Of a stretch of 19,843 nt of DNA, positions 4,911 to 19,841 are shown piece by piece. The DNA lies in IMG/VR virus record IMGVR_UViG_2724679236_000005, positions 1 to 19,843 of that record; one strand, given 5' to 3'. Each line of letters starts with the position of its first letter. The first letter of the stretch is position 1. The stretch comes from a virus. Taxonomy: Duplodnaviria; Heunggongvirae; Uroviricota; Caudoviricetes. A program made the position numbers and the translations under genes. The notes under the pieces were generated by a model. The model searched no databases. It saw nothing but the letters and a program-made list of their open reading frames with translations, and was not told the origin of the DNA.

Positions 4911-5529
4911 TAGGTCCTATCTCCACTAACAAACTCACAATTGGCGAGCCTGATATATATAGCCCGCCGTTAATTTTTACACCGCCGTCGCCGTCTGCTG
5001 GGATATTTACGCCTATTTTTGCGTAAGCTGCACCAGCGATATAGAATTCACCGTCAACACTTGTTTCGAAATTTATTTCTTTTAATAAGGAACGACAGTT
5101 TTTTGCATCAAATATTTGTGCAATAAACGTGTTCAATAGTTCTAAATCTAATCCCATGTTTTTTAGCAAGTATATTTTAATTGCGAACGTATACGGGTCA
5201 TCCCTGGGCGTGGCCTCAAACCACTCCCGCATTTTGCTCTCAAACCCTACCGTTAATAACGCGCGTTCGACGGCACCACGCGTTCCACGGTGTTTGTTTT
5301 GCCACGCCGCTGCTTTGATAATTTCGCGTTTTTGCTGCTCGCTCCAGTCCGGGTTCCAGTACGTAACTGCATATTCCCATGCCAGCCACGGCAGCAGATT
5401 TGCAGGGCACAAATCGGGATTCTTAATAATTCGAATATCGCCAGGCAGATCGCCGACGTGAGATAAAACAACTTCCAGCGCTCTCTCGGGGGTTATTGCG
5501 TTCGGAGGCAGTACGCTTTGACTTGTCAT
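4903..5529 (-). CDS. Baseplate/tail protein (P2 gpI-like)
   Basis: 208 aa; motif NPDLCPANLLPWLAWEYAV matches the conserved gpI motif NPDTCPANLLPWLAWA as recalled. Confidence 0.85.
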   Translation of the reverse strand: MTSQSVLPPNAITPERALEVVLSHVGDLPGDIRIIKNPDLCPANLLPWLAWEYAVTYWNPDWSEQQKREIIKAAAWQNKHRGTRGAVERALLTVGFESKMREWFEATPRDDPYTFAIKIYLLKNMGLDLELLNTFIAQIFDAKNCRSLLKEINFETSVDGEFYIAGAAYAKIGVNIPADGDGGVKINGGLYISGSPIVSLLVEIGPNG

Positions 5530-6792: not shown

Positions 6793-7695
6793 TTACGCCA
6801 TTGGTTGGTTCGGTTGTTGTGTTTCCCCATCAGGACATGTGTGAGTGTGTCCGTTGTACGTTGTGCGGACCTCAGTTATTGTGCCTTGTCGGTCCTGCAC
6901 CTCTTGCCCTGCTAACACACTACCGCGAGTTGTGATATTACCTGTTCCACCGTTATCTCCAGTGACAGAAATATCGTTGCGGAATGTCGCCAGTTTATCA
7001 ACAACCAGCGTTTCTGTTATATGCGTTGGACCTGCTAGCGTTATCCCGCCGGGCGCTAATGCTCTTATTGTTTCTGCCGTCAGCGATATACTATTCGCGG
7101 CGGTAACATTTACTGAACTTGTTGCTATTACGTTCACTAAATCAGCGTGCGCGTTAATTGTATCTGTCGCTGTCACGTTAATAACGTCAGCGTCTGCGTT
7201 AATTAATTTTCCGCCGTGAATATTGACAACGTTTTCACTTGTGACCGTAACGTCTGCGCGACCCAAAATTTCTATTTTGGATTCGCCGAGAATTTTTACA
7301 ATTCCTTCTGGTACTCCTTGCCAGATGAGAGTGTGGTTTTCTGTGTTATAGGTTAGCGTTGCGCCGTCACAATATGCGGTGACGTGGTCGTGAGGGTCAG
7401 TACTGGGCGGTGCTTTGTTGTCAATATGTAATCCGAGCATGACGACGCCATTTCGCGTATCTCCCCCCTCAGAAACAACAGTGACTGGGTCGCCAACAGA
7501 TGGGGCGCTCCAGTCCACGCGCTCCGATGTCGCGTGCGTGAACCATTGTAGCCAGCCCGATTGGTGTTCTCCACCAAACGACACGCGACATCTTGGAGGA
7601 TTCATCTGAACTGCAGCTATGGTGCCGCGTTTAACGGAGTCACGCAGCCGGCGAGCGTTCTCCGCGGAGGCGTATTCATCGTCCGATTGGGCCAT
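6793..7695 (-). CDS. Baseplate spike/hub protein (P2 gpV-like)
   Basis: 300 aa; N-terminal CRVSFGGEHQSGWLQWFTHATSERVDWSAPSVGDPV aligns with P2 V; long beta-helix-like repeat region; C-terminal GHTHTCPDG resembles the His-rich spike apex. Confidence 0.85.
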   Translation of the reverse strand: MAQSDDEYASAENARRLRDSVKRGTIAAVQMNPPRCRVSFGGEHQSGWLQWFTHATSERVDWSAPSVGDPVTVVSEGGDTRNGVVMLGLHIDNKAPPSTDPHDHVTAYCDGATLTYNTENHTLIWQGVPEGIVKILGESKIEILGRADVTVTSENVVNIHGGKLINADADVINVTATDTINAHADLVNVIATSSVNVTAANSISLTAETIRALAPGGITLAGPTHITETLVVDKLATFRNDISVTGDNGGTGNITTRGSVLAGQEVQDRQGTITEVRTTYNGHTHTCPDGETQQPNQPMA

Positions 7696-8212
7696 AGTAG
7701 TCGCTCTCGTGTTCTGCGCCGATATCTGGCGCTATTCCGACGTATATATTTTTCAGGGTTCCCTGTGAGGGATAATCGAAAATATCGGGACCAACGCCGA
7801 TAACTTGCGTGAACGACACGCACTGAACTGAATGCGAACCGACTGACTGCCCGTTTTTAATCCAGTCACACGGTTCCGCGTCGCTGAATTTTGCCGGTTT
7901 AGTTCCGGGACCGAACATTCGCCCATTAATCCAGCTCGTCATATAGAGCGCTGCATTTTGCGATTTCAGTCCGTACTGATCAGCTGCAAACTCTCGCAAC
8001 AAATACAAATTACACGACAGCTCGACTGACTGAATTGAGCTTGCAACCGCTTCGTCACTCTGTGACCAGTTGCTGATTTCCAGGAACAGAGCTGGCGTTT
8101 CAAATCCAGCCGGAATTTCTGGATAAATACCGAATGTTTTGATGAACGGTATTTGTAAAACCGCGCCTTTAACGCGATCAAGATATTCGTCAAATGCATC
8201 CAGTCCGCTCAT
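7676..8212 (-). CDS. Hypothetical tail-associated protein (position of a tail completion protein)
   Basis: 178-aa ORF, ATG at 8212 overlapping the upstream stop (ATGA), immediately upstream of gpV; no family recognised by eye. Confidence 0.3.
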   Translation of the reverse strand: MSGLDAFDEYLDRVKGAVLQIPFIKTFGIYPEIPAGFETPALFLEISNWSQSDEAVASSIQSVELSCNLYLLREFAADQYGLKSQNAALYMTSWINGRMFGPGTKPAKFSDAEPCDWIKNGQSVGSHSVQCVSFTQVIGVGPDIFDYPSQGTLKNIYVGIAPDIGAEHESDYYGPIGR

Positions 8213-14051: not shown

Positions 14052-14281
14052 AATCGAACTCCCACGGGCCGACGGCGTCCCGTACTCAGACCGAGCTGTG
14101 ATTTCAGCTCGATAATGTACGTTCGGAGCTGCTCAATACTCGCCTGCGAGTATTGATAGCTCCGGTTATTTCCTGCTGAATCGCCGTGAGACAGCGACAC
14201 GGTCGATTTACCCGTTAATAATTTGTGCAGAGCGATTTCCGCTTCCAGCAGTCGTTCTGTTAAAACCTCGCGCGACGTCAT
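14048..14281 (-). CDS. Head-tail joining / head completion protein (lambda gpW-like)
   Basis: 77 aa; EAEIALHKLLTGK...LRTYIIELKSQLG...RRRPVG matches lambda W motifs (AAARAALHDLMTGK...KYIAELEVQTG...RRRGPAG) as recalled. Confidence 0.85.
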   Translation of the reverse strand: MTSREVLTERLLEAEIALHKLLTGKSTVSLSHGDSAGNNRSYQYSQASIEQLRTYIIELKSQLGLSTGRRRPVGVRL

Positions 14282-16242
14282 TAGCTCCCTCCGAGCATTC
14301 TGGCCATCTCCTCGAGAGACAGTTTGTTTTGTGATTTTTTCCGTTGCTCAGCGAGCGTCTCGAGATTGAGCTGAAAACGAATTTTACTGATACGCAGCGC
14401 CGCCAGTCCGTACACCCAGCAGTCGAGCGCTTCATTTCGCCGGCCCTGATTGTCCCAGCGATAAACGACGCGACCGTTAATGAGTTTTGGGATCAGAACT
14501 TCGGAGACGAGCTGTTTTGCCTCTGTCGTGCCGAATATTTCATCGTCATTGGGAAAATGAATTGCGCCCGGTGTCGCCGATTTAGGGTCGGGTTCCAGCG
14601 GCAGACGCATCGCGAGCAAATCTTTTGCCGTATCAGTACCGATTAACGATAAATAAACTTTATTCGCGTTACGGGTACGCGGCATATTTACGACCGGCTG
14701 GCCGTATGAGCTCGCGCCTTTGATCGGAATGACCCACAGCGGACCGAGTTTGAGCGAGCGGTTATAAACGACCTGCGCGTCTATACCACCGGTATCCCAC
14801 GCCCAACGACTGACGCCGATTGTGGTCCCGTCGCTGCGCTGGTATTGTTTACGAATCACTCCGTCGACGCGCTGCAGCGTGTCCTCCTCGTCGTAGCGAC
14901 CGAGGACGATTGTTTTATCAATCAGCCAACACTCCTCCTCAGATCCCCAGCCCCACACGTAACACTCGTAGCGCCCGGACGTCTGAGAGTCGATGCCGCC
15001 GGTTATATAAACAACACCGTCAGGAACCTGGCTGGCGTATTTTTCCCGGCGATTAACGAGAATATCGTGCTCCAGCTGCTCGCTGGCCACGTCGCTCCAG
15101 AGCTCGCCGAGCGTCGTGTTATGAAACGTTTTTTCTTTGAGTGGGTCGCCTTTCGCTTTCAGCCACTCGCTGACAATCTCGCCCCAGCCGTCGAGATTCA
15201 GTGAATACAGGGCGTTTATCACGATCGCCGCGTGTTTCGGCGCGCGAACGACACCACCGTCGTGATCAAAAAAATGAATACCGTCCCGCGTCCAGGTGCA
15301 GTCCTCTGCTATCCAGCGCCCCGCGAGCTCCATTTTTTCGAGATCGCGATAGTAAAAATGCTCCGGGCAGTGGCAGCACTGGTAATACGCGGACGACGAT
15401 CTCGCCTCATTTGTCTGCAGGCTGTTATCCCATTTGAGGCCATATTCGATGCCGTCGAAACCAAATACCAGGACCTGCTCCTCGCCACAATGCGGACACT
15501 TCAGGTAAAAACGAAACGTCAGATCGGCAGCGTCTTCGAGCATTTCTATATGGCTTTTACCGGTGACTGTCGGTGTCGAACCGAAAATTGCCTTCGGGTA
15601 CGCTGCCCCTTTAATTCGAACGAGCGCAAGCTCGATTGGCGAGCCCTCGCCTTTGCCTTTTTTGGCAACTTCCAGCGGCCAGCCGTCGACCTCGTCACCC
15701 TCGACAACCTGTTTCGTTAGTCGCCGGAAATTTCCTGGCGTACTCGCGCCGCGAAAATCAATAATCGCGCCGTTCATTTCTTTACGCTGGAGATTGTTAC
15801 GCTCGTTGCTTTTATCCCAGTCGGGGAAAATTTTCTGAATCACCGGCATTTCGGCGATAGCGGGGTCAACCTCGTCGGCGACAAATCCATCCGATTCGTC
15901 ATCGATAGGCTGATAGACCACGGCACTACGTTTTTTGTGCTCAGCGAAATAGAGCAGCGCCGCGACGAGTATTTTTGTATAACCGAGACGAGCTGATTTG
16001 CGAACAGACACTATTTTTATCGCGTCGTTTGTCATCATATTCAACATCACAATCTGGACCGGCTGAGTCGTCCAGTGACCCGCAATATGGCTGGAGCCTT
16101 CGGGGAGGTAAAAATATTTATCAGCCCACTCAACCCCCGTCATCGGTATCGTCACGCGCAAGGGATTCAACCCTGTCGAGATCGCGTTCGATATCGCTGA
16201 CATCGTAATCGCTGAAGTCGACTCGTATGTCTGCCAGTTCAT
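14281..16242 (-). CDS. Terminase large subunit (lambda gpA-like)
   Basis: 653 aa; VEWADKYFYLPEG, VRKSARLGYTK, EGSPIEL, GSTPTVTGKS, CPHCGEEQ are all colinear with lambda A motifs as recalled. Start uncertain: track start 16242 overlaps terS by 113 nt; in-frame Met codons also at 16203 and 16143. Confidence 0.95.
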   Translation of the reverse strand: MNWQTYESTSAITMSAISNAISTGLNPLRVTIPMTGVEWADKYFYLPEGSSHIAGHWTTQPVQIVMLNMMTNDAIKIVSVRKSARLGYTKILVAALLYFAEHKKRSAVVYQPIDDESDGFVADEVDPAIAEMPVIQKIFPDWDKSNERNNLQRKEMNGAIIDFRGASTPGNFRRLTKQVVEGDEVDGWPLEVAKKGKGEGSPIELALVRIKGAAYPKAIFGSTPTVTGKSHIEMLEDAADLTFRFYLKCPHCGEEQVLVFGFDGIEYGLKWDNSLQTNEARSSSAYYQCCHCPEHFYYRDLEKMELAGRWIAEDCTWTRDGIHFFDHDGGVVRAPKHAAIVINALYSLNLDGWGEIVSEWLKAKGDPLKEKTFHNTTLGELWSDVASEQLEHDILVNRREKYASQVPDGVVYITGGIDSQTSGRYECYVWGWGSEEECWLIDKTIVLGRYDEEDTLQRVDGVIRKQYQRSDGTTIGVSRWAWDTGGIDAQVVYNRSLKLGPLWVIPIKGASSYGQPVVNMPRTRNANKVYLSLIGTDTAKDLLAMRLPLEPDPKSATPGAIHFPNDDEIFGTTEAKQLVSEVLIPKLINGRVVYRWDNQGRRNEALDCWVYGLAALRISKIRFQLNLETLAEQRKKSQNKLSLEEMARMLGGS

Positions 16243-16696
16243 TCAGGGCTATCGCCAGCTCCTCTCGTAATACACTGCTCGCCTCCTGCGGCATTTCAGG
16301 CCACACCTTTTTCAATCGTGGTGGCCATGACTCGACGCGGGTACGTAATTCAACGGCGACGCGAGATACAGCGACGCTAATTAATTCAATTGGCGCGTAA
16401 CGTTTAGCGAGAATGCGGCGTTTTACTCGTGCCATCAGGATTCGCTCCTGTCGTTCCTCATTTTTCAGCCACTGCTCGCGATTTTTTTCGGGAGAATTGT
16501 CCCCCACTTCCGGTTCGTCTGTACCAATTGTGTCGCGTCTATTGCTCCGGAGATAACGAATATAAAAATGGCGCCATGCGTCAAGTTCCCAATCGCCACG
16601 TCCTTGGGGGACTGGAGCTCCCGGAAGTTTTGCGAGATCGCGCAGACGACGATCAGATAGCAGTAAATGTGCTGCGACCTCAGCCTGACTTGCCAT
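16130..16696 (-). CDS. Terminase small subunit (lambda Nu1-like, N-terminal HTH)
   Basis: 188 aa directly upstream of and overlapping terL; N-terminal LSDRRLRDLAKLPGAPVPQGRGDWELDAWRHFY resembles the Nu1 DNA-binding region; SD GAGGA 7 nt upstream of ATG 16696; cos-like sequence immediately upstream. Confidence 0.7.
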   Translation of the reverse strand: MASQAEVAAHLLLSDRRLRDLAKLPGAPVPQGRGDWELDAWRHFYIRYLRSNRRDTIGTDEPEVGDNSPEKNREQWLKNEERQERILMARVKRRILAKRYAPIELISVAVSRVAVELRTRVESWPPRLKKVWPEMPQEASSVLREELAIALNELADIRVDFSDYDVSDIERDLDRVESLARDDTDDGG

Positions 16697-16699
16697 TAA

Positions 16700-16810
16700 A
16701 AATCCTCACCGGAACCGGAAATACCCAAAATGAAAAAATACTAAAAATGAGTGAGTTTTTGCGCGTCTACCGACCCTCGGTGTTTTGGATTTCGGAAAGG
16801 ACCCGCGACC
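16700..16810 (-). other. Putative cohesive-end site (cosQ-like, cosN-like dyad, cosB-like region) upstream of terS
   Basis: Minus strand carries CGGGTCCTTTCCG (16805-16793), identical to the 13-mer in the lambda right-end cosQ region as recalled, then ~18 nt later the dyad ACCGAGGGTCGGT (plus 16769-16781), then an AT-rich stretch ending TATTTCCGGTTCCGG next to the terS start. Confidence 0.5.
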
Positions 16811-17050
16811 AGAGAGGCTATCTCCCTTTCAGGACAGGAATCGGGGGCTCGCATCAGGTTCATCAAACTCAACTGTAGCCTCGCGACGTACTTGTTTGCA
16901 TACCTCAGCTTTGTGTATCTGATTATCAGCGTAAGCTTTCACTTTGGCAGCGAGCCATCCTTTTGCGCTGTATCGATAGATTACCGAACAAGTTTTCGAT
17001 ATATGTATATATCTTGAACTTATTGATATCCTTACAGAAAAACAACAGCC

Positions 17051-17311
17051 ATGAGCACACAAAAAATGAACAGAGAAAAAATTGAAGCCTTAATGAGCGT
17101 AATATTAAAAGAAGCTGACCCAAAAAAGTTTCCTGAGAAGTTATCAGAGGACGCCGTCGTATCTTTTTATCGTGCGAACTCCTCTTATCTACATTGTCCA
17201 ACTTTAAGAGAATGGTTAAGCGGCGAAGCAGAGCCTTCAGATGAGATACTTGAGGAGATTATGGTTCAGAACAACTGGCGCGCAACTAAATGGTCAAATC
17301 GGTTACCTTAA
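17051..17311 (+). CDS. Hypothetical small acidic protein (accessory/moron gene)
   Basis: 86-aa ORF opposite in orientation to the flanking late genes, downstream of an AT-rich region (16880-17050); weak SD; no family recognised. Confidence 0.45.
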   Translation: MSTQKMNREKIEALMSVILKEADPKKFPEKLSEDAVVSFYRANSSYLHCPTLREWLSGEAEPSDEILEEIMVQNNWRATKWSNRLP

Positions 17312-17579
17312 CCTGTTGAATGTGTGCCGCCTTGAAACAAAAAGGCGACCTCTCATTTAAGTAAAACGTCTCTTACATCAGGTACCAGCTCTTTGGCACA
17401 TTGCGCAGTTGTTTTTTATACGTCGGCGAGCTGTTGCGAAGCTCAGTCCCTGCGCGTCACACCATTCTTTCGGTGATACACATGATTTGACGTACTCGGA
17501 CAGGAATCGCTTCTGAAGCTCAAGCCCAGTCCCGGTTTGCTCATGTAATTAAATCCTACTGTATTCTCATGGTGCCCAG

Positions 17580-17921
17580 ATGTCGTCTATGCTTTTAACT
17601 CGAACATTCAATGAAGAGAAATGCTCTATGGTTATTGGTATGCAGGAATCAAAAAATTGCCCTGTATGCGGCTCTGATGCCACATGGACAAATCACGATA
17701 CGTGCTGGAAAATTCATTGCAGTGGTTTTTGCGGTGATTTTTTAATCACAACCACTACGATAAATTATCTGAAGGGCGATGCACTAAGGCGTCTTGATGC
17801 CAACGATCTCTTAAGAGAGCCAACAACACTCAAGACACCTTTAACAAACAAAATCCTTGCTGAATATGCTCGTACAAAATATCCCGTGCACATCTTTGAA
17901 GGTCACTATCCGGGCTATTAG
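17580..17921 (+). CDS. Hypothetical Cys-rich (zinc-ribbon-like) protein
   Basis: ORF with CPVCG...C-x4-C-x3-C cluster; more likely start is ATG at 17628 (GAAGAG upstream) than 17580; stop overlaps the convergent minus-strand ORF by 3 nt. Confidence 0.45.
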   Translation: MSSMLLTRTFNEEKCSMVIGMQESKNCPVCGSDATWTNHDTCWKIHCSGFCGDFLITTTTINYLKGDALRRLDANDLLREPTTLKTPLTNKILAEYARTKYPVHIFEGHYPGY

Positions 17922-18196
17922 TCAGTGCTAGTAACTTTCGGAATAGGAGAAATTTTAGATGTGTGATAATTCATCTCGTCGATAGTCTGAGGAATTAACT
18001 CACTCGCGCCATTTGCAACTGCAACGCGATAATGCGGTCCATTCCATCGACTAAAATCGGAGCGTTCATAAATTACCACCTCATCCCCCACAGAAACCCT
18101 TAACTCCGTGCTACCTACGGGTTCAATAGCGGAATTAGAATAAATGTCTTCAACACGACCGTGAAAAGGCCCACCAACGAACAAAAACTGTGACAT
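17918..18196 (-). CDS. Hypothetical protein
   Basis: 92-aa ORF; ATG at 18196 with AGGA 8 nt upstream; no TMD, no recognised motif. Confidence 0.45.
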   Translation of the reverse strand: MSQFLFVGGPFHGRVEDIYSNSAIEPVGSTELRVSVGDEVVIYERSDFSRWNGPHYRVAVANGASELIPQTIDEMNYHTSKISPIPKVTSTD

Positions 18197-18334
18197 ATAA
18201 TTTCCTATTAAAAAATAACCAGTTAAATCGGCATTTAAAAATATGTCATATTTATGATTCTGTCTTTAGCACCTTTGTGTGGTCAGGTTGCCTGGGCCAA
18301 ATGATCAATCATCAATTCATTAAGATAAATTACC

Positions 18335-18529
18335 CTATTTTCCAACAGGGCATGAAGCCACTGCCCCAGTTGAATCAATACAACCACCGTCCGCAGTGGT
18401 AATTTTCGTACCCGGCGCGATCATCACGTGTTTAATACTGCTGCCGTCAGCGCGAGTCGCTTCGGTGTATGTCGAATGTGTGCAGCCTGCCAGCGTGAAG
18501 AACGCGACAGCTAAGAGAAGTTTTTTCAC
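18335..18529 (-). CDS. Small outer-membrane lipoprotein in the lysis cassette (possible o-spanin-like or Bor/Cor-like)
   Basis: 64 aa; GTG start 7 nt after the endolysin stop with AGGT upstream; signal peptide MKKLLLAVAFFTLAG-C with lipobox LAGC and Thr at +2; two further Cys in the mature part. Confidence 0.6.
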   Translation of the reverse strand: MKKLLLAVAFFTLAGCTHSTYTEATRADGSSIKHVMIAPGTKITTADGGCIDSTGAVASCPVGK

Positions 18530-18536
18530 GTTTTAC

Positions 18537-19016
18537 CTACGCTTCTGAGATAGATTTCTCAGCATTCACCAATGGAAGTGATTGTGGAACATCCGTTTGA
18601 CCTGCTGGCCAGCGATAGCCTGTTACGCGGGAACGAGGAAAAGCTTTGATATTTACTTCATCTGCCTGGTTACCACCCAAAATCATTAAATCCCCGGCGG
18701 CATTTTTCCCGACAACAAAGCCAACGTGACCACCGCCAGACCGAGACAGAATAGCAATGCATCCATAGGCGGGTTCCTTCAGTTCATTACCCCAATCGAG
18801 ATAAGAATTCGCAGACTCAAAACGCGTTGAGCGAATACCCGCACGTTCCAGCATTGCCCCGGTGAAAGCAGCGCACCACGGTGTTTCGTCATCCTTAATG
18901 CCGCCGCGTTTGATATCTTTCCAGTACTGCACAATTTCTGCAGCATGTTGCTTCCCTTTCATTTCCCGAATGCCGAGGTTTTTTCGAGCCTCAATTAGCC
19001 ATTTCGGATCGGTCAT
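18537..19016 (-). CDS. Putative endolysin, Cys/His peptidase type (CHAP/NlpC-P60-like, TIGR02594-like)
   Basis: 159 aa; candidate catalytic Cys in ETPWCAAFTG and His in GGGHVGFVVG; no signal peptide or TMD; sits after two membrane proteins. Confidence 0.6.
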   Translation of the reverse strand: MTDPKWLIEARKNLGIREMKGKQHAAEIVQYWKDIKRGGIKDDETPWCAAFTGAMLERAGIRSTRFESANSYLDWGNELKEPAYGCIAILSRSGGGHVGFVVGKNAAGDLMILGGNQADEVNIKAFPRSRVTGYRWPAGQTDVPQSLPLVNAEKSISEA

Positions 19017-19288
19017 TACCTGTCTCCTGTTATTTTTGAAATATTTCCTCGTGCCCGCCAGACAGCAATACAGATGGTGAGATTGAGAAAGAACTCTGCG
19101 GGATCAACCTGCGTATATTTTCCGTATAAAATTCGTAGGGCTATCCAAGCAGCAGACAGAATCGCCAGGTAAGCAGTTAGTGAGATAAAAAAACGATAGC
19201 GGCCTGTTTTTTGAAAAAACATCAACCGTAGTGCCAACATCAGACAGATAATTGCATTGGCATTGATGAGGACAGAGTGCAGGGTCAT
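19016..19288 (-). CDS. Small membrane protein with three predicted TMDs (holin or antiholin-like)
   Basis: 90 aa with three hydrophobic segments; ATG overlaps the upstream stop; directly upstream of the endolysin gene. Confidence 0.5.
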   Translation of the reverse strand: MTLHSVLINANAIICLMLALRLMFFQKTGRYRFFISLTAYLAILSAAWIALRILYGKYTQVDPAEFFLNLTICIAVWRARGNISKITGDR

Positions 19289-19671
19289 TATTTCATCCCC
19301 TTATCTGATTTCCATAAACGAGCTTGTGACATGATCCGCAACAGTGATGTAACGCTGATTACTGATGCAACCAGTGCACCAATGGCGGGAGATACTTTTA
19401 CTGTTATGGGTGGGTTCAGGTGACTCAGCGCCGCATTCAGAATACCGGTAATGATGGCTGATGCTGTTTCAGCGCAATACACACCACCAACAAACGAAAT
19501 GAGTGCGAAAATAACCTGCTTCCAGAATCGATGCTGCCCAGACGACAACACATAGAGAGCTGCGCCTGCCAGCGCACAGATCATCACTGCAGGTGTTGCC
19601 TCAGGAAATAACGCAGCAAACGTCACCCCCGCCGAGCCAGCAGCAACGCCAGCGGTTAGAGGTTCAGACAT
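19288..19671 (-). CDS. Holin-like membrane protein (first gene of the lysis cassette)
   Basis: 127 aa from ATG 19671 (SD AGGA 8 nt upstream), 3-4 hydrophobic helices, charged C-terminal tail. The track ORF to 19839 uses a GTG inside the terminal repeat and is judged an over-extension. Confidence 0.6.
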   Translation of the reverse strand: MSEPLTAGVAAGSAGVTFAALFPEATPAVMICALAGAALYVLSSGQHRFWKQVIFALISFVGGVYCAETASAIITGILNAALSHLNPPITVKVSPAIGALVASVISVTSLLRIMSQARLWKSDKGMK

Positions 19672-19685
19672 GATTTTTCCTGATT

Positions 19686-19715
19686 CAGAAACGACAAAAC
19701 CCCGCCGTGGCGAGG
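19686..19715 (-). terminator. Putative intrinsic terminator/attenuator in the leader upstream of the holin gene
   Basis: Minus-strand RNA CCUCGC-CACG-GCGGGG (6-bp stem with one G-U) followed by UUUUGUCGUUUCUG, ending 14 nt before the holin SD; position analogous to lambda tR' between pR' and S. Confidence 0.35.
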
Positions 19716-19783
19716 TTCTTAGGGATTTGGCAACATACCAAATTAGCGTTAAATATGGCCTATTTTGTTCGGTTTTGCAAGTA

Positions 19784-19841
19784 TTTGTATGGGTCCACCA
19801 CATATTGCAATTTTTGTTCTCTCTTAAAATATATTCCACGG
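19784..19841. repeat. Right arm of the perfect 58-bp terminal inverted repeat (partner 1-58)
   Basis: Exact reverse complement of 1-58; lies in the putative late leader/promoter region upstream of the holin gene. Confidence 0.9.

Follow-up and report, generated by a model that had tools for sequence, protein, structure and literature searches.

A mosaic accessory-gene slot at the junction of the lysis cassette and the packaging genes of a lambda-type Escherichia prophage

What occupies the space between the lysis genes and cos in this prophage, and do the small genes found there belong together? The stretch of DNA that we analyzed (the window, 19,843 nucleotides) carries a lambda-type Escherichia prophage of the cos-packaging kind (gpA/Nu1-like), whose proteins are identical to E. 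albertii entries. The initial annotation placed three small genes in an accessory island at this position, and the three ORFs are indeed present at 17051-17311 (+), 17580-17921 (+) and 17918-18196 (-). They are called A, B and C below. Accessory slots of temperate phages are the source of many genes for lysogenic conversion, exclusion, defence and anti-defence. The block is a mosaic accessory-gene (moron-type) slot where the lysis cassette meets the packaging genes, real and fairly ordinary. B and C are two small proteins under purifying selection, each independent of the other, and no obligate pair. For the explanation as a whole, which comprises the assembly of the slot, its expression logic and the roles of its proteins, we estimate a probability of roughly 60%.

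Layout of the slot

The last gene of the lysis cassette encodes a 64-residue lipoprotein, and in the common form of the slot the antisense gene A is found between the lipoprotein gene and cos. A and B are antisense to the late operon, and C is on the late strand. The following features were located in the window.

16998..17013, no strand: perfect 7-bp inverted repeat GATATAT-GT-ATATATC, read from the sequence, about 40 bp upstream of A, GC content 35-37%
17051..17311, plus strand: gene A, an ORF of 86 residues; the RefSeq homologue starts at the second ATG (17066), giving 81 residues
17326..17349, plus strand: hairpin GCCGCCTT-GAAACAAA-AAGGCGAC directly 3' of the A stop codon, read from the sequence
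17354..17365, no strand: left cassette junction CATTTAAGTAAA, from the alignment with the minimal variant vB_EcoM-705R4; an imperfect direct repeat of the right junction
17378..17544, minus strand: terS' remnant, the inactive 5' piece of a small-terminase gene (Terminase_2 type) of foreign origin, from translations and tblastn
17628..17921, plus strand: gene B, 97 residues (the ORF is open from 17580, giving 113 residues), with an N-terminal Cys4 zinc ribbon
17918..18196, minus strand: gene C, 92 residues with a conserved core of 80; RefSeq 'DUF8847'
17978..18009, minus strand: protospacer inside C, 32/32 identical to spacer 10 of a type I-E array of E. coli G3/10, with an ATG PAM
18197..18329, minus strand: intergenic stretch upstream of C, GC content 38%, ending in the right junction repeat
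18318-18329, no strand: right junction repeat CATTAAGATAAA, from the alignment of slot variants; the direct repeat D2 touches 18318-18332

B and C converge, as had been described, but the overlap of their ORFs is 4 nt (17918-17921) and not 3 nt, with the two stop codons sharing 2 nt. The base composition of the island is also as expected of an insert: the GC content is 35-41% at 16900-17300 and 38-47% over the remainder of the island (to 18400), compared with 50-54% in the terminase and endolysin flanks. The region 16880-17050 is thus AT-rich, as the initial annotation had it, but the promoter-like character it was given could not be recovered, as a scan with the sigma-70 consensus found no promoter-like site on its plus strand. 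Overall, the scan returned 3 sigma-70 sites against 3.4 expected from shuffled sequence, and none of them is upstream of A, B or C. The inverted repeat at 16998..17013 may serve as an operator or as part of a promoter. A promoter of C's own, if there is one, would be expected in 18197..18329, where no consensus promoter was called.

The hairpin at 17326..17349 is present in all three aligned slot variants (the window, the E24377A type and the minimal type), and its 8-bp stem is perfect in E24377A. It is a candidate for a weak terminator, although a clear T-run is lacking and the terminator scan did not call it. A search of 16400-18700 with Rfam found no RNA family.

Slot alleles and the origin of the B-C cassette

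Among prophages that are 95-97% identical elsewhere, the slot occurs in three allelic forms: A only, A with the B-C cassette, and A with a two-gene cassette of the E24377A type, which is unrelated to B-C. A was found in about 458 of the 5,426 complete E. coli genomes, and the minimal slot with A only accounts for about 437 of these, as well as for phage vB_EcoM-705R4. The cassettes are rare, B-C being carried by 14 of the 5,426 genomes and the E24377A type by 9, and a terS' remnant is present in 21. The three genes are no single unit (about 458 genomes with A versus 14 with B-C). Gene A is core to the prophage lineage, whereas B and C were imported together with a terminase scar and are separable elsewhere. 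In contrast, the interpretation of the island as an accessory slot of moron type at the lysis/cos junction is borne out by its variability among colinear prophages, by its lower GC content and by the antisense orientation of A and B.

The imported segment spans 17366-18329 (about 964 bp) and lies between the two imperfect 12-bp repeats. Matches to the minimal type end at window position 17365. The 268-bp gap between A and B, previously taken to be non-coding, holds terS' on the minus strand, which fills most of it. The remnant begins with MSKPGLGL, is shifted by 1 nt after codon 8, continues with ELQKRFLSEYVKSCVSPKEWCDAQGLSFATARR... and then runs into a tail without homology; its stop comes after about 55 codons, in a gene that has about 330 when intact. 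It is 60% identical to residues 1-49 of the intact 332-residue TerS in another prophage context, L014 (E 1e-18), and tblastn matched it to the N-termini of annotated terminase small subunits (E 1e-9). The homology covers the N-terminal helix-turn-helix segment. The L014 protein is a member of Pfam Terminase_2, and the domain itself lies at residues 76-275, beyond the part that is homologous to terS'. Judged by its reading frame, terS' is a pseudogene.

Three comparisons bear on where the cassette came from. In L014, the intact terS homologue is in the expected position after a homologue of C. In a further context, L025, the region from the start of B to the start of terS is nearly identical to that in the window, and terS is intact. 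Finally, the E24377A cassette carries the same terS' remnant. The slot was built as follows. Its ancestral and still common form has a single antisense orphan, A, between the lipoprotein gene and cos. A cassette of about 964 bp was then recombined in between the imperfect 12-bp repeats in a small minority of the copies. The donor phage had the gene order lysis genes, C, B (antisense) and a Terminase_2-type terS, and the recombination cut the donor terS so that a dead 5' stub remained. We consider this history, together with the moron reading, very likely. The slot is bordered by the terS' stub on one side and by the 3' end of the lipoprotein gene on the other. The alternative cassettes have both borders in common, and these may act as homology arms for cassette swapping. 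With its terminase scar, its imperfect junction repeats and its alternative cassettes between common flanking sequences, this locus documents cleanly how a slot of this kind is assembled.

Genes A, B and C

Gene A was found in every examined copy of the prophage slot, in all variants. It belongs to phrog_5191, a PHROGs family of unknown function (E 6e-58), and one automatic UniRef name for it is 'bacteriocin immunity protein'. Its homologues are restricted to Escherichia, and no distant homologue was found. One candidate for the latter, P0073, was rejected, as a deletion there has fused the C-terminal half of A to sequence from upstream of terS. There was no Pfam and no PDB match to A, even at E values up to 10. 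The possibility that A is an immunity protein of the colicin type was also rejected, as a BLASTP comparison with Im7 resulted in an E value of 1.8 and there was no Pfam or PDB match. No allele examined interrupts the ORF. In a comparison of four alleles, non-synonymous variation affects 8 codons and synonymous variation 5, with no clear sign of purifying selection, and no Shine-Dalgarno sequence was seen by eye. A may be untranslated. The concern that the ORFs might be spurious is settled for B and C, which are real genes by the measures given below, and stands for A.

The start of B that is conserved in its relatives is at 17628, where the protein begins with MVIG. The CPVCG...C-x4-C-x3-C cluster reported for B is present, and four of its five cysteines (C11, C14, C31 and C35 in the 97-residue form) are invariant in five sequences with identities down to 44%. 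The remaining one, C26, is not conserved. The second cysteine pair is CxxxC in the window and CxxC in context L028. Relatives with 44-55% identity keep the full length and the four cysteines. The C-terminal half (...LADYAR...F.E.YPG) is conserved as well and was found in the B family only.

The best Pfam match of every member of the B family is Lar_restr_allev (PF14354). B itself matches it with an E value of 1.1e-5 and 26.0 bits, which is below the cut-off of 28.6, and its relatives score 17.7-25.7 bits. The match covers profile positions 2-33 or 2-34 of 58, which is the zinc-knuckle half only, whereas RalR scores 53.5 bits over positions 2-58. An hhalign comparison of B with RalR gave a probability of 22-34% over 27-30 columns, and the most distant B relative matches other zinc-ribbon families about equally well. 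Matches of B in PHROGs are weak. Unfortunately, the AF2 model of B is unusable (pLDDT 50), with an alignment of four near-identical sequences behind it. B is disrupted by a frameshift or stop loss in the alleles P0006, P0007, P0009 and P0010.

C is preceded by an AGGA Shine-Dalgarno sequence 7 nt before its ATG and carries the N-terminal motif LFVGGPxHG. Its predicted structure is a confident beta-sheet-plus-helix model, for which the fold searches returned no structural neighbour and no match to any lysis or virion protein. RefSeq names WP_071791986.1, which is 99% identical to C, a 'DUF8847 domain-containing protein'. Our Pfam search gave no match for C, and the Pfam copy that was used apparently predates the DUF8847 model. 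A C profile did match giant proteins of 1,000-3,000 residues, but these are Ig, FN3 and FG-GAP repeat proteins, and we treated the matches as beta-strand noise. In summary, C is without a recognizable fold and without a predicted function. A search of 50,697 GenBank phage records found no homologue of either B or C at E values up to 1. Among plasmid records, there was a single match, to B, in a record of 1.3 Mb, and it proved to be another prophage.

The original assessment that the three proteins are essentially uncharacterized was thus upheld. PADLOC-DB 2.0 showed no match at E values up to 0.1 for A, B, C, the lipoprotein or the proteins of the E24377A cassette, and none at up to 0.01 for the slot neighbours in L014 and context L026. 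NCBIfam and PDB sequence searches were negative for all three proteins, and Pfam returned the weak Lar match alone. B and C are nevertheless maintained as proteins, as their dN/dS values between the window and context L005 are 0.13 and 0.14, respectively, at a dS of about 0.55-0.6. They represent two very rare families under purifying selection that are absent from every catalogue. At present, the content of the slot is that of ordinary hypothetical accessory genes.

In the window-type prophages as well as in L025, L026, L028 and L005, B is found in antisense orientation, with the lysis genes ending on one side of it and the packaging genes beginning on the other. Flanking sequence is common to the window, L025 and L005, so that these are not independent of one another and about three independent backbones are left for B. 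C comes directly after the lysis genes, on the late strand, in the window and after Rz/Rz1 in L014. A strict co-occurrence of the two genes fails in four places: in L025, B is intact and C is truncated to residues 24-92 with its upstream region lost; L026 and L028 contain B without C; and L014 contains C without B. In L026, B abuts a module of ParB_N and a TET-associated glycosyltransferase, and in L028 the late region contains a known immune domain, a TIR protein inserted between Q and the holin.

We also considered the group L004-L007 as an independent B-C context and rejected it. It is a degraded Rac-like prophage, its integrase being a truncated homologue of Rac IntR (71% identity) at the ttcA site. 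The module has a lipoprotein remnant on one side and late-strand genes, one of them for a DUF6246 protein, on the other. This is the same late-operon slot, and hence the co-inheritance of B and C in L005, where the lipoprotein gene remnant travels with C, reflects linkage.

Expression, competing explanations and known systems

The orientation of the genes suggests an expression logic, to which we give even odds. Late transcription antiterminated by Q would run through C in the sense direction, then in antisense over B and A, and then on to cos and terS. C would thus be made with the late proteins, as this transcription traverses it in the sense direction. B and A would accumulate only from weak promoters of their own, and only as long as the late operon is not transcribed (in the lysogen or at early times of infection); the converging late transcription would then silence both. 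Weak promoter candidates upstream of B have 8/12 consensus matches in the window and 9/12 in L025. The bor gene of lambda has the same arrangement, antisense to late transcription.

Could B and C instead form a two-gene conflict module, a toxin-antitoxin or abortive-infection system in which B is a RalR-like toxin and is restrained by the C protein or by an antisense RNA, as RalR is by RalA? The two genes were inherited together from end to end in two prophage lineages at a dS of about 0.6, both under purifying selection, and their convergent 4-nt overlap means that each transcript must enter the other gene. RalR (Lar) is itself toxic, and the gene of its sRNA antitoxin converges on it. Every context of B has some convergent transcription unit that ends no more than about 80 nt from the B stop codon, and the disrupted B alleles would fit an occasional inactivation of a toxin. 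We consider such a module unlikely, however. B stays intact in L025, where C is missing its upstream region along with the first 23 codons, the convergent neighbours of B in L026 and L028 are unrelated to C, and C persists without B in L014. The co-inheritance seen in L005 is one of linkage and no independent association. Neither gene matches a PADLOC or toxin-antitoxin family, and no convincing complementary repeat of the RalA kind stands out at B/C, where we found only short AT-rich repeats (D2 and I2) at chance level.

In the window and in L014, whose backbones are unrelated, C comes right after the last lysis gene and lies on the late strand. Could C be an accessory factor for lysis or late morphogenesis, with the slot functionally a part of the lysis cassette and not a moron slot? 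The good Shine-Dalgarno sequence of C without an obvious promoter of its own, and the lipoprotein remnant that accompanies it in L005, would agree with such a role. Yet C is missing from about 437 of the 458 near-identical prophages and from the sequenced phage vB_EcoM-705R4, and hence it is not needed for lysis or assembly. As no signal peptide or membrane segment was seen by eye and C has neither a homologue in GenBank phages nor a structural match to lysis or virion proteins, we find this role very improbable. It is similarly improbable that the island is partly debris, with A a chance or decaying ORF next to cos and with B and C as hitch-hiking remnants of recombination without a current role. 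For A, this reading draws on the missing Shine-Dalgarno sequence, the absence of homologues outside the prophage lineage and a variation that looks near neutral. The cassette demonstrably holds one dead gene, terS', B-C is rare (14 of 5,426 genomes) and disrupted B alleles exist. The dN/dS values of 0.13-0.14 at a dS of about 0.6 speak against it for both B and C, as do the full-length B relatives with their four cysteines and the confident model of C, and the ORF of A is intact in all alleles examined.

The moron-type slot thus remains our preferred reading. Examples of morons are lambda bor at the lysis/cos end and the 'ant moron' of P22-like phages. The concept is that of Hendrix and co-workers (definition in PMC2629481). 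Like lambdoid morons, the slot is an insert in the late operon, found in some colinear relatives and missing from others, with a GC content below that of its flanks; it carries genes that are dispensable for lytic growth and was apparently remodelled repeatedly at one permissive site. Like bor, A and B are antisense to late transcription. Unlike lambdoid morons, the slot has no identifiable promoter/terminator pair, its content is unrelated to bor, lom or known conversion genes, and it holds a terminase pseudogene that records its origin. To assign it lysogenic conversion, exclusion or anti-defence as a role would be to guess.

Lar, which is RalR of the Rac prophage, was described as a restriction alleviation protein and later as the DNase toxin of a type I toxin-antitoxin system, in which it is faced by the convergent gene of the sRNA antitoxin RalA (PMC4041452). 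B resembles it as a small prophage protein with an N-terminal K-x-C-P-x-C-G...C-x(2-3)-C zinc ribbon and in that a convergent transcription unit faces its 3' end. The differences are considerable: about 55 residues of B, its conserved C-terminal half, have no counterpart in Lar, B is located in the late region and not, as Lar is, in the early recET region, and its convergent neighbour is a protein gene, whereas that of RalR is an sRNA with a 16-nt match. We propose only tentatively, from sequence resemblance and from the module next to B in L026, that B may have a Lar/RalR-like role in DNA-level conflict, either modulating restriction-modification or binding or cutting DNA. Should B prove to act on restriction systems or on DNA, the Lar/RalR group, itself poorly understood, would be widened by it.

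A bolder proposal, which we regard as doubtful, is that B represents a new position-tied family of prophage zinc-ribbon effectors of about 100 residues. They would always lie antisense between lysis and packaging genes, be made only with the late operon silent, be shut off by converging late transcription and act in restriction evasion or inter-phage defence. C would then be a late protein with a new fold and a host- or phage-directed activity of its own, and either protein might be a component of defence or anti-defence that is missing from the catalogues. The slot resembles the hotspots of variable accessory genes known from prophages and satellites, such as the P2/P4 defence hotspots, in that alternative, unrelated small cassettes occupy one site with conserved flanks in closely related prophages. 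Unlike those of the hotspots, its cassette proteins, including those of the alternative alleles, match no PADLOC model.

Lastly, three consecutive CRISPR spacers of one E. coli strain match the terminase, gene C and the endolysin. As spacer matches, they are evidence that phages carrying the B-C cassette have attacked E. coli.

Position of the block in the late region

The minus strand of the window is the late region of a lambda-type prophage, and about 8% of complete E. coli genomes hold near-identical prophages.

Late genes around the block, in late gene order, and elements within it
19839-19016, minus: two holin-like genes, the start of the late gene order within the window
18537-19016, minus: endolysin of the CHAP/TIGR02594 type, after the holin-like genes
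18335-18529, minus: gene for a 64-aa lipoprotein, between the endolysin and the block
17918-18196, minus: gene C
17628-17921, plus: gene B
17378-17544, minus: terS', remnant of a foreign small-terminase gene
17051/17066-17311, plus: gene A
between the block and the small terminase: non-coding stretch, expected site of cos
16130-16696, minus: small terminase, past the presumed cos stretch
14281-16242, minus: gpA-type large terminase, followed by head and tail genes

The three open reading frames of the initial annotation were confirmed at their coordinates, as was the cysteine cluster of gene B. Genes B and C do converge; their overlap is 4 nt by coordinates rather than the 3 nt given earlier, and the two stop codons have 2 nt in common. 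The consecutive Escherichia albertii entries EHX2143636-39 are identical to the four proteins from the lipoprotein through gene A. No inner-membrane spanin was recognisable in the lysis cassette (18335-19839), where two holin-like genes and the endolysin are present. The endolysin is followed only by the 64-aa lipoprotein, which has no C-terminal membrane segment and whose best PHROG matches are weak.

Mosaic structure of the slot and its origin

For comparison, two further forms of this prophage were aligned with the window. In phage vB_EcoM-705R4 and most E. coli copies, gene A stands alone between the lipoprotein gene and cos. Compared with these A-only versions, the window carries a further 964 bp (17366-18329), flanked by CATTTAAGTAAA at the left junction and CATTAAGATAAA at the right. 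At the same site, E. coli E24377A and SE11 carry a different insert, a 156-aa plus-strand ORF and an 82-aa minus-strand ORF. All that this insert has in common with the window is the left ~180 bp and, on the right, the end of the lipoprotein gene. Among 5,426 complete E. coli genomes, gene A is found in about 458, the shared left arm with terS' in 21, the B-C cassette in 14 and the E24377A-type cassette in 9.

The 268 bp between A and B, previously taken for a non-coding gap, are not empty, as they hold the remnant of a dead terminase gene. Minus-strand positions 17544-17521 translate to MSKPGLGL and, after a 1-nt shift, positions 17521-17381 translate to ELQKRFLSEYVKSCVSPKEWCDAQGLSFATARRRIKNNCAMCQRAGT, followed by a stop codon. 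This peptide matches annotated terminase small subunits from phages of Klebsiella, Yersinia and E. coli at their N-termini (E 1e-9) and is 60% identical (residues 1-49) to the intact 332-aa small terminase of viral contig L014, a Pfam Terminase_2 protein. The window's resident small terminase is unlike it, so the donor of the cassette was a phage with another packaging system, and the recombination that brought the cassette cut through the donor terS. L014 has the donor-type order intact: holin, endolysin, Rz/Rz1, a C homologue (54% identity, on the same strand as the lysis genes), two unrelated small genes and terS. In L025, another of the compared sequences, B sits immediately upstream of a further intact terS, in divergent orientation, and its own upstream sequence differs little from that in the window.

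These comparisons establish the mosaic structure of the slot and its origin. The moron reading of the initial annotation is thus broadly right; its grouping of the three genes into one trio is not borne out, since the block is composite, A occurs alone and B and C are separable. The region adds a new instance of a familiar kind of phage feature, with three hypothetical proteins.

Genes B and C

Both B and C are real as proteins. Between the window and L005, from a degraded Rac-like prophage, dN/dS of B is 0.13 at a dS of 0.6, which identifies it as a real protein; that of C is 0.14, and a good Shine-Dalgarno sequence precedes it. The conserved start of B is the methionine of MVIG at 17628, giving 97 aa. 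Its family is tiny: a search of 5.8 billion proteins gave only near-identical Escherichia sequences, GenBank phages yielded no homologue at E up to 1, and the more distant members come from just three prophage or viral contigs (86%, 55% and 44% identity). Four cysteines (CxxC, then CxxxC or CxxC) are invariant in the family, as is the SDATW-N motif between the two pairs, and the conserved C-terminal half (...LADYAR...F-E-YPG) is found in this family alone. Of the natural B alleles P0006, P0007, P0009 and P0010, two are frameshifted and two have lost the stop codon (TAG to CAG), which lengthens B by 15 aa into the 3' end of C. The B frame of L005 likewise continues beyond the usual stop.

For every B-family member the top Pfam match is Lar_restr_allev, with scores of 17.7-26.0 bits that all lie below the gathering cut-off of 28.6 and cover only the first half of the model. 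Because membership fails this threshold, we call B "Lar-like" only as a lead. An hhalign comparison of B with RalR gave a probability of 22-34%, and the AF2 model of B was too poor for use. King and Murray reportedly gave the first description of Lar, as a protein that alleviates EcoKI restriction. Lar is the RalR protein of the Rac prophage, a non-specific DNase toxin whose sRNA antitoxin, RalA, is encoded by a convergent gene just downstream (PMC4041452). That B acts in a similar way, on restriction-modification or directly on DNA, is a tentative guess to which we give a probability of about 0.3. In viral contig L026 (2234-3923), a ParB_N protein and a TET-associated glycosyltransferase, a pair typical of DNA hypermodification, separate the B homologue from the small terminase; such neighbours fit a restriction-related role of B only loosely.

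Gene C has a conserved 80-aa core whose N-terminal motif is LFVGGPxHG. When 1.84 billion representative proteins were searched exhaustively with HMMER, only four small homologues emerged, the other matches being giant proteins with Ig-type repeats, which we regard as noise. RefSeq labels C as DUF8847, a model absent from the local Pfam copy used. The AF2 model is confident (pLDDT 80, pTM 0.69) and predicts six strands and a C-terminal helix in an arrangement without a known fold.

B and C adjoin each other end to end both in the window type and in L004-L007, which belong to a degraded Rac-like prophage at ttcA with an N-terminally truncated IntR homologue (71% identity). The latter were considered as a new context and ruled out: a lipoprotein remnant on one side and late-strand genes, one encoding a DUF6246 protein, on the other mark the same late-operon slot. 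In L004-L006 (Enterobacteriaceae FGI 57 and Logan contigs), the truncated IntR is joined directly to the lipoprotein-gene remnant, which is followed by C, B and late-strand genes of unknown function, the intervening DNA having been deleted.

The two genes are nevertheless separable. B is intact in L025, where C lacks its first 23 codons; its convergent neighbours in L026 and L028 are unrelated to C; and L014 has C without B. These separations argue against an obligate toxin-antitoxin or two-component system. As for the proposed defence function, no PADLOC model matches any slot protein. Placement is conserved across the backbones: B, antisense to the late operon, is found between the final lysis gene and the first packaging gene in all of them, and C follows directly on the lysis genes, on the late strand. 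The independent backbones number roughly three for B and two for C, so this is suggestive and not statistically secure. Two parts merit follow-up: the B family because its placement and orientation are conserved, and C because its confident model has no known fold. The 44% B homologue of L028, an HK97-like prophage (CP099174.1), is unannotated in the record (4995-5300); the same prophage has a TIR-domain protein gene, probably a defence moron, inserted on the opposite strand between the Q antiterminator and the holin (6962-7777).

Expression, gene A and CRISPR targeting

Gene geometry and the precedent of lambda bor for antisense genes in a late operon suggest the following as the most likely model. 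Q-antiterminated late transcription would pass through C in sense, so that C would be a late protein, and would next run antisense across B and A before reaching cos and terS. B (and A, if expressed) would depend on weak promoters of its own and be made only in the lysogen or at an early stage of infection, being shut off once late transcription starts.

The block as a whole is AT-rich (35-47% GC against 50-54% in the flanks). The promoter-like character of the region upstream of A is not backed by a consensus scan, which found no sigma-70-like plus-strand site there and site numbers not above those of shuffled sequence. About 40 bp upstream of A, in the AT-rich stretch that separates it from cos, two 7-bp arms form a perfect inverted repeat around a 2-bp spacer (GATATAT-GT-ATATATC, 16998-17013), which could be an operator or protein-binding site.

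Gene A matches phrog_5191, annotated as of unknown function, is restricted to Escherichia and has no Pfam, NCBIfam or PDB match. No Shine-Dalgarno sequence was seen for it, its polymorphisms are few, and clear purifying selection is not evident. A could be a small gene for regulation or conversion, or may not be translated. One database names it automatically a bacteriocin immunity protein, which comparison with Im7 does not support. The sole candidate for a distant homologue, P0073 of E. coli, was ruled out as a deletion fusion of the region upstream of the small terminase (window ~16690-16870) to the C-terminal half of A (~17170-17311). The deletion takes out the presumed cos region, and the prophage can no longer package.

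CRISPR spacers target the variable slot repeatedly. In the type I-E array of E. coli G3/10 (L015, NZ_CP060075.1), the consecutive spacers 9, 10 and 11 match the prophage on the same strand.

Matches of the G3/10 spacers in the window
14590-14621: large terminase, 30/32
17978-18009: gene C, 32/32, ATG PAM
18669-18700: endolysin, 30/32, ATG PAM

The pattern resembles a burst of primed adaptation directed at a phage with the B-C cassette. The gene C spacer is also present in strain TUM1881, the 3' end of A (17292-17324) is matched by spacers of other E. coli arrays (NZ_CM188746.1), and spacers in several strains match the 82-aa gene of the E24377A-type cassette (4501-4533 of L002, a sequence holding it).
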